Sequence record: PQ287649.1
DNA length: 64,000 bases
Reading direction: 5' to 3' (one strand)
From: Pseudomonas phage HHBS47_1
Under the pieces are notes generated by a model. It did no database searches, was not told the origin of the DNA, and was given only the letters and a program-made list of their open reading frames with translations. The position numbers were made by a program, and so were the translations under genes. Position 1 is the stretch's first letter. Each line of letters starts with the position of its first letter. This document shows positions 59,812 through 60,226 of this stretch, piece by piece.

Positions 59812-60226
59812 TGAGCTGTTGTGAAAACAATAGATCACTCAGTCCAACCAGGGAGTAATCCCTGGTTGCCATTACCTTTAATTGCGGGAACCTACTGAGA
59901 GCCTTATCTACCAAACCCGAGCAGGAAACCAACGGGTGGCCAACCATAACGGGTTGGGGACGGTAATAACGATAAGGATTGGGGAACCCTACGCAGCGAA
60001 GCACCTACGTATTGTCGAGAGGACAAGATAGGGTGAACGTTCAACGACTACGGATGAAATTTCCGGTAGAGGTGTCAGGATGATACTTCCAAAAGTAAGG
60101 TTGCCCTGTATGCTTGAGGTGTGAATAACACTGAGTACAGGGATGAAATATAGTCTCGTCATCTAAGGGAAAACCTTAGAGCGTGGTGCTACGCGCACCG
60201 GCGGATAGGATATCCGTGAAGAAACG
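59812..60226 (+). ncRNA. group I self-splicing intron 2 (no ORF)
   Basis: R element GTTCAACGACTA at 60039 and S element ATATAGTC at 60148; T before the 5' splice site and G before the 3' splice site; joined exons read ...THDD|VKRAVFTSTQASQAV, i.e. EHDD|ANRALMGANMQRQAV of RpoB with identical spacing; 3' boundary uncertain by about 9 nt. Confidence 0.7.

Follow-up and report, generated by a model that had tools for sequence, protein, structure and literature searches.

A predicted ORF-less group I intron at the HDD codons of the virion RNA polymerase beta-like gene of Pseudomonas phage HHBS47_1

A close described counterpart of the element considered here is the gp210 intron of phage PhiPA3, which lies in the virion RNA polymerase (vRNAP) beta gene gp211/209 at the equivalent of E. 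coli RpoB D675, and from whose endonuclease PhiPA3 gains an advantage over phiKZ (Birkholz et al., Science 2024, PMC11620839). In 201phi2-1, the orthologous gene is given in GenBank record EU197055 as a joined CDS "similar to phiKZ gp178, EL gp186 and EL gp187," and a single gel band and two spliced long reads have been reported for it (PMC2919709, PMC11512511). Pectobacterium phage ParM-25 also has an intron at this site, containing HNH and located at YDD/PKR (a slash within a motif or sequence marks the insertion point). The vRNAP beta subunit is essential in the related phage SPN3US (PMC5105663). Long-read transcriptomics of phiKZ saw no splicing at three predicted intron-associated endonuclease genes (PMC10914365), so prediction is no guarantee of activity in this phage family.

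We analyzed a 64-kb stretch of the HHBS47_1 genome (PQ287649.1), referred to here as the window. Bases 56600-61400 match Pseudomonas phage EL over their full length with 98.3% identity, and phages phiRU, IR-QUMS-PaBa1, MIZ-Pa99, GXNNE2, and GXNNA8 with 97.7 to 98.3% identity. EL belongs to the genus Elvirus and is a phiKZ-like, nucleus-forming jumbo phage. Its RefSeq gene order is gp184 ("RNA polymerase beta subunit"), gp185 (HNH endonuclease), gp186, gp187, and gp188, with gp186 and gp187 entered as two separate CDSs, each labeled "RNA polymerase beta subunit." GenBank notes for PhiPA3 and 201phi2-1 treat EL gp186 plus gp187 as the equivalent of phiKZ gp178, which is the beta-like subunit of the RNA polymerase packaged in the virion. 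The interrupted gene is this virion RNAP beta-like gene, a single gene of 1439 codons. Immediately after it, ORF 61348-62226 encodes a peptidoglycan-binding domain (PF01471); its GXNNE2 counterpart is annotated as a lysin, and by position it corresponds to EL gp188, which we take to be the characterized EL188 endolysin.

The original prediction described a beta ORF ending in ...MYGGTHDD at a stop, about 415 nt of noncoding sequence, and a downstream frame open 5' of its annotated GTG, and the reading frames are as described. The ORF runs from 56611 to 59814, its TGA (59812-59814) directly following the HDD codons; the intervening sequence measures exactly 415 nt, and none of the small ORFs on its two strands matched a PHROG. 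Beyond it, the reading frame opens at 60209, and ORF and sequence inspection found no start codon in it before 60269. The 14 residues encoded just upstream of 60269, VKRAVFTSTQASQA, align to the universally conserved ANRALMGxNMQxQA segment; because 60269 is the first start of this frame, these conserved residues have no start codon of their own. In tblastn searches, nearly all of the best 60 of 297 phage genomes matched were aligned as one uninterrupted piece across the junction point.

The position of the junction can be read from close relatives. GXNNE2 and GXNNA8 match in two pieces (91% query coverage), with 415 nt missing, and in GXNNE2 (vB_PaeM_GXNNE2, 97.7% identical) the beta-like gene is annotated as a single 4320-nt CDS. 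There, ...ACGCATGACGAT leads directly into GTGAAGCGAGCAG..., which places the junction at window positions 59811/60227; when the boundary is moved by one base to either side, the GXNNE2 sequence (GATGT) is no longer reproduced. The joined window exons come to exactly 4320 nt, and their 1439-aa product differs from the GXNNE2 protein by seven substitutions and no gap (99.5% identity). Precise removal of the insert thus restores the host gene, as judged from both the GXNNE2 allele and the gap-free product. Near the junction, the exons of the window and GXNNE2 differ only at +3 and +6 (GTC AAA versus GTG AAG), both synonymous; the next differences lie at -51 and +102. On sequence comparison, we regard the intron-less GXNNE2 allele as the decisive evidence, independent of any RNA model.

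Joining 59811 to 60227 had been proposed to yield HDD-VKRAVFTSTQASQAV, and this is what the GXNNE2 junction and the gap-free product confirm. The equal spacing claimed for the conserved RpoB motif is likewise seen: the segment aligns without a gap to HDDANRALMGSNMQTQAV of Thermus RpoB, HDD-VKRAVFTSTQASQAV facing HDD-ANRALMGSNMQTQAV of the Thermus subunit, and in a search of PDB sequences the junction region matched residues 540-695 of Thermus RNA polymerase beta (E=7e-9). Pfam found nothing on the exon products, because the protein is too divergent. The insertion point falls right after the second Asp of HDD, which is D675 of E. coli RpoB and D1072 of phiKZ gp178. The predicted spliced junction reads ...CATGACGAT/GTCAAACGAG..., with a predicted junction-spanning tryptic peptide ...TPTGDGSVTMNLMYGGTHDDVK. 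Three alternative 3' sites allowed for by the original prediction (60209, 60218, and 60221) are excluded, because the GXNNE2 allele fixes the junction; they lose the frame if taken as the final G of the intron, and if taken as the first exon base they add two to six residues that are absent from GXNNE2 and the compared homologues.

Table 1. Coordinates of the exons, the intron, and its predicted structural elements in the window
Feature	Position	Strand	Basis
Exon 1 of the virion RNAP beta-like gene (EL gp186 homologue), C terminus ...GTHDD	56611-59811	+	ORFs, relatives, spliced product
P1: GAU/UGAG (59809-59815) with CUCAGUC (59838-59844)	59809-59844	+	pair search, ViennaRNA (-14.1 kcal/mol)
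Group I intron, 415 nt, without endonuclease ORF	59812-60226	+	RF00028, GXNNE2/GXNNA8 without insert, PHROG
P2 hairpin, 10 bp	59845-59868	+	segment fold
P3 5' strand, pairs with 60097-60102	59873-59878	+	RF00028 alignment; compensatory changes in 5 of 6 pairs
P4 (59883-59888 with 59987-59988 and 59992-59995) around P5 and branched P5 extension (59891-59983)	59883-59995	+	RF00028, fold, covariation
P6/P6a	59996-60040	+	RF00028, fold; 4 pairs with compensatory changes
R element GTTCAACGACTA (J6/7 and P7 5' strand, 60046-60050)	60039-60050	+	RF00028, motif search, covariation analysis
P7.1 (60051-60054/60062-60065) and P7.2 (60069-60077/60081-60089), between P7 and P3'	60051-60089	+	fold
P3 3' strand	60097-60102	+	covariation
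P8 hairpin	60104-60142	+	RF00028, fold
S element ATATAGTC (J8/7 and P7 3' strand, 60151-60155)	60148-60155	+	RF00028, motif search, covariation analysis
P9 (60162-60168/60174-60180), P9.1 (60184-60189/60195-60200), P9.2 (60201-60207/60211-60217)	60162-60217	+	RF00028, fold
Terminal G (omega-G), last intron base	60226	+	sequence, GXNNE2 junction
Exon 2 (EL gp187 homologue plus 14 conserved codons 5' of annotated GTG 60269), stop included	60227-61345	+	ORFs, GXNNE2, Thermus alignment

The insert belongs to the group I family. An RF00028 scan, suggested with the original prediction, gave a full-length match on the + strand (59777-60181, model positions 1-253 of 253) with 39.3 bits (E=1.7e-8 in the E-value scan of the region), the sole significant family match for the 415 nt. 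This is below the RF00028 gathering score of 50 bits, which is why a whole-window Rfam scan at the gathering threshold returned no matches, and it is low because of large insertions in P2, the P5 extension, and P7.1/P7.2. The same-site introns of 201phi2-1, ParM-25, and PhiPA3 score 87.4, 82.6, and 67.8 bits, respectively, all above the gathering score. A U occupies position -1 (U59811), and the intron ends in G60226. The R and S elements that the original prediction recognized in this intron and in intron 1 of the same window are indeed common to both (56258 and 56358 in intron 1); that is the only other GTTCAACGACTA/ATATAGTC pair in the 64 kb, and an estimated ~0.008 occurrences of a 12-mer would be expected by chance in 128 kb. 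The description as ORF-less also holds, as the ORFs that overlap the intron on the two strands reach at most 76 aa and none of them has a PHROG match.

Segment folds and alignment to the model gave the anticipated P1-P9 structure in full, extending to P9.2 and including P7.1/P7.2. P1 consists of 7 bp and places the splice-site U59811 in a U.G wobble with G59842; its extension (59816-59822/59827-59833) is capped by a GAAA loop, and its AGUC guide sequence is common to the 201phi2-1 and PhiPA3 introns. An initial P1 model (ACGAU with GUUGU, 6-nt loop) was dropped, since the 7-bp GAU/UGAG-CUCAGUC helix is more stable and AGUC is the shared guide. The P1 and P2 drawn by cmscan were spurious as well, the true P2 lying inside a model insertion. 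P7 is formed by 60046-60050 with 60151-60155. The P7.1/P7.2 region appears as a 48-nt insertion in the RF00028 alignment, and the hairpins at 60051-60065 and 60069-60089 form when folded in isolation. Hairpins P7.1 and P7.2 between P7 and P3' are the hallmark of subgroup IA in the Michel and Westhof classification; as modeled, the intron is of subgroup IA type. By sequence inspection, P10 is weak, with 2 to 3 pairs to the actual 3' exon. The minimum free energy z-score against shuffled sequences was -4.6 for the + strand and -3.3 for the - strand.

Support for the core also came from comparison of nine introns (the window intron, intron 1, those of 201phi2-1, PhiPA3, ParM-25, PS1, and VB_ZK_P1, and two from OMKO1), which were aligned with MAFFT, with explicit counting of pairs in P3, P4, P6, and P7; the MAFFT alignment of P8, P9, and P9.1 was too poor for their pairs to be counted. 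Across these nine, 98.6% of the P3/P4/P6/P7 cells were standard pairs, versus 33 to 52% when partners were slid by one to three columns. Ten pairs had changes on both sides, and the observed covariation score was reached by none of 500 shuffles. P7 was invariant in all nine. The P3-P4-P6 and P7-P8-P9 helices with the R and S elements make up a conserved catalytic core, which the covariation supports. Overall, the GXNNE2 allele, the RF00028 match, the core fold, and the covariation agree with the proposal of a group I intron splitting the RNAP beta-like gene at HDD.

One point needs refining: of the two introns, the second alone is in the beta-like gene, and intron 1 splits another gene, the upstream beta'-N-like gene. 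Intron 1 spans 54660-56431, with U at -1 (54659), G at 56431, and a downstream exon at 56432-56614. Its HNH_3 endonuclease ORF occupies 54745-56016, the ribozyme core lies 3' of that ORF (56013-56385), and the RF00028 score is 46.2 bits. It splits its host gene in DHD/GDQ, the counterpart of the catalytic NADFDGD magnesium-binding motif. The two introns have identical R and S elements, belong to the same family, and both lie in a catalytic motif, but their cores are only ~50% identical, and intron 1 carries the HNH_3 ORF whereas intron 2 is ORF-less. Only the first exon of the gene split by intron 1 is annotated in RefSeq. A 57-aa ORF (56441-56614) matches the C-terminal end of PHROG 2986 (positions 490-538 of 539), which makes gp184 plus the 57-aa exon a protein of ~541 aa.

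Other introns of the family occupy additional sites. A second insertion site lies 10 nt 3' of the HDD site (DDxKR plus 1 nt/...LFSG; the relative AVP1 is intron-less). It holds an ORF-less 391-nt intron in Aeromonas phage PS1 (968-1358 of the segment compared) and an ORF-containing intron in Raoultella phage VB_ZK_P1, both with U at -1 and a 3' G; the PS1 intron gave no RF00028 match at E<0.01, although its R and S elements are present. A local 87% match to VB_ZK_P1 had suggested a core closer to site-B introns, and this idea was dropped, as site-A and site-B identities are similar (46 to 58%). The best non-Elvirus BLAST match to intron 2 was an intron of Bacillus phage vB_BspM_AgentSmith (1674 to ~3360 of the segment compared; 74.6% over 176 nt), which has an HNH ORF and interrupts the beta-like gene at a third catalytic motif, ..GIGD/KKVVFGNQMK, taken to be the GDKxxGRHGNKG region. 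Its host gene is misannotated as "putative HNH endonuclease," and its HNH ORF matches the gp185 homologue of the window weakly (24% identity, E=8e-11). Two tandem group I cores of the same family lie ~440 nt apart in OMKO1 (2468-2688 and 2910-3145 of the segment compared) and likewise occur in PA7, fnug, Brmt, and W10-2; the region lacks RNAP-beta similarity and is flanked by two "hypothetical protein" CDSs. phiKZ was absent from the BLAST matches to the intron.

From these observations, we consider it highly probable (roughly 93%) that the beta-like gene is one gene with a 415-nt ORF-less group I intron of subgroup IA type, whose exons are joined by splicing or at least end up joined. Transcription of the gene would run through the intron, whose RNA would adopt the P1-P9.2 ribozyme fold. 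Free guanosine bound at P7 would attack the bond 3' of U59811, held in its wobble with G59842 in P1, and the freed 3'-OH of exon 1 would then attack after the terminal G60226. The ligated mRNA would encode ...GTHDD-VKRAVFTSTQASQAV..., restoring the conserved beta active-site segment. We infer splicing itself, and its possibly unaided course, on top of boundaries, frame restoration, a fold, and family membership that were observed directly. Splicing or exon joining is very likely because the SPN3US beta subunit is essential and the 14 conserved residues would otherwise be untranslatable. Searches of the literature, which did not cover the EL genome paper, found neither RNA or protein data for HHBS47_1 or EL nor an explicit description of the intron in EL.

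Alternatively, the element could be a dead relic, with two beta fragments (gp186, and gp187 from GTG 60269) assembling noncovalently. RefSeq does list two CDSs, jumbo phage RNAP subunits are naturally split elsewhere (PMC7598289), and the RF00028 score is below the gathering score. However, translation from 60269 would lose the 14 conserved residues, with no start codon between 60209 and 60269 to recover them, and the ribozyme core is intact, covarying, and more conserved than the exons. The gene is also continuous in the sister phage GXNNE2, and the 201phi2-1 orthologue is a single polypeptide; a relic of this sort is therefore very improbable. Even less credible, to the point of being negligible, is an assembly artifact or an insertion of another type, be it a group II intron, an IStron, a MITE, or a segment coding for an intein. 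RF00028 is the only significant match, and neither terminal repeats nor a target-site duplication was seen in the junction sequences. An intein is impossible because an in-frame TGA directly follows the HDD codons. The insert recurs at 99 to 99.8% identity in four more GenBank records, representing three isolates (EL twice, phiRU, and IR-QUMS), which argues against misassembly. A GTGAAG in the 3' tail of the intron, the same 6 nt with which the 3' exon of the intron-less allele begins, was considered as a duplication or alternative junction and rejected: the alternative alignment requires an additional gap of 11 nt and disrupts the frame, and the UGAAGA tail is common to family members in unrelated genes.

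It is also conceivable, though unlikely, that the intron is real but splices only when assisted by a protein of the phage or the host (through a maturase-like factor or folding coupled to the ribosome), or that its splicing is confined to one stage of infection; it would then gate virion RNAP production conditionally. Against such dependence, all canonical core elements are present here, the sequence carries no sign of a cofactor, and self-splicing in vitro is the general rule for phage subgroup IA introns of this type. On the other side, P10 pairs weakly, the splicing of T4 group I introns in vivo depends on translation and growth state (Sandegren and Sjoberg 2007, as cited in PMC10914365), and no splicing of the predicted phiKZ introns was seen under the conditions tested (PMC10914365).

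Returning to the intron as a spliced element of one gene, its presence at this conserved target site varies within Elvirus. It is present in EL, phiRU, IR-QUMS, and MIZ-Pa99 and absent from GXNNE2 and GXNNA8. ORF and PHROG analysis of both strands revealed no endonuclease gene of its own, so the intron cannot home alone; it is either a relic of a once-mobile intron or is spread by recombination or an endonuclease supplied in trans. Between the window and EL, the intron is 99.76% identical and exon 1 97.75%, with just one difference in the tract 59779-60318, a pattern compatible with purifying selection on the ribozyme and equally with a recent recombinational transfer. It is possible, though rather unlikely, that the intron is more than a neutral passenger and that its occupancy of the HDD site makes EL-type phages immune to gp210-class HNH endonucleases, deployed by coinfecting chimalliviruses as weapons aimed at this site. 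The Elvirus polymorphism, with its two synonymous changes at +3 and +6, would then be a live cycle of gain and loss fueled by the conflict, with mobilization in trans by an endonuclease encoded elsewhere, for example the HNH of intron 1.

Some sequence differences among the alleles are worth recording. The single intron difference between the window and EL is at 59864, in the P2 3' strand, where the window has G and keeps a C-G pair and EL has T, giving a C/U mismatch. At 60229/60232 (+3/+6), the intron-containing alleles inspected (window, EL, and MIZ-Pa99) read GTC AAA and the intron-less GXNNE2 reads GTG AAG; these synonymous changes are the only ones within ~50 nt of the junction. A better, 4-bp P10 with intron bases 59835-59838 would form with the intron-less sequence, so that divergence of an endonuclease site or coconversion seems a likelier origin of the changes than adaptation to splicing. 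In the MIZ-Pa99 copy, P1 and its extension have a 4-nt deletion and substitutions, there are some six indels of one base each, and the tail is altered (GAAG-TTCG), all of which could reflect sequencing error or a decaying intron. The Straboviridae taxonomy of the MIZ-Pa99 record looks wrong for an EL-like phage.

Several consequences follow. EL gp186 plus gp187 and their counterparts in phiRU, IR-QUMS, MIZ-Pa99, and the window should be annotated as one joined CDS of 1439 codons, and proteomic or structural work on the EL virion RNA polymerase should expect a single beta-like chain of ~160 kDa, as estimated from its length. The HDD codons of the chimallivirus vRNAP beta gene constitute a recurrently occupied intron site, with HNH-encoding introns in PhiPA3 and ParM-25 and ORF-less ones in EL-type phages and 201phi2-1. 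Elvirus isolates that naturally carry or lack the intron infect the same host species, P. aeruginosa, and could serve to test whether such an intron affects competition between coinfecting jumbo phages, a question raised by the PhiPA3 study.

Among the known systems, the PhiPA3 gp210 intron interrupts the same gene (the phiKZ gp178 orthologue) at the same point, NDD/MKR versus HDD/VKR here, and shares with the window intron the J3/4-P4, R, and S elements, the UGAAGA..CG tail, and the AGUC guide. The PhiPA3 intron, however, is 1352 nt long and codes for gp210, an HNH endonuclease with nicking activity; in the window intron the P5 extension is larger and P8 is longer, and core identity between the two is only ~53%. 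The 201phi2-1 gp273/274 intron is likewise ORF-less and at the same site (HDD/MKR), but it is 336 nt long with a compact core lacking the P5 extension, scores 87.4 bits against 39.3 for the window intron, is ~46% identical to it, and comes from a phage of a different host and genus. Essential genes of other phages, such as Twort and LUZ24 (DNA polymerase), also carry group I introns that are ORF-less; these are small and of subgroup IA type, lie in the codons of conserved catalytic motifs, and vary in presence among close relatives, in host genes that are different. This specific intron appears to be undescribed, whereas the kind of element and its insertion site are already known. Because same-site introns are known in related phages, what we propose is an annotation fix and not a new kind of element; as phage group I introns go, the one in the window is ordinary and well formed, and its homing site is a known one.
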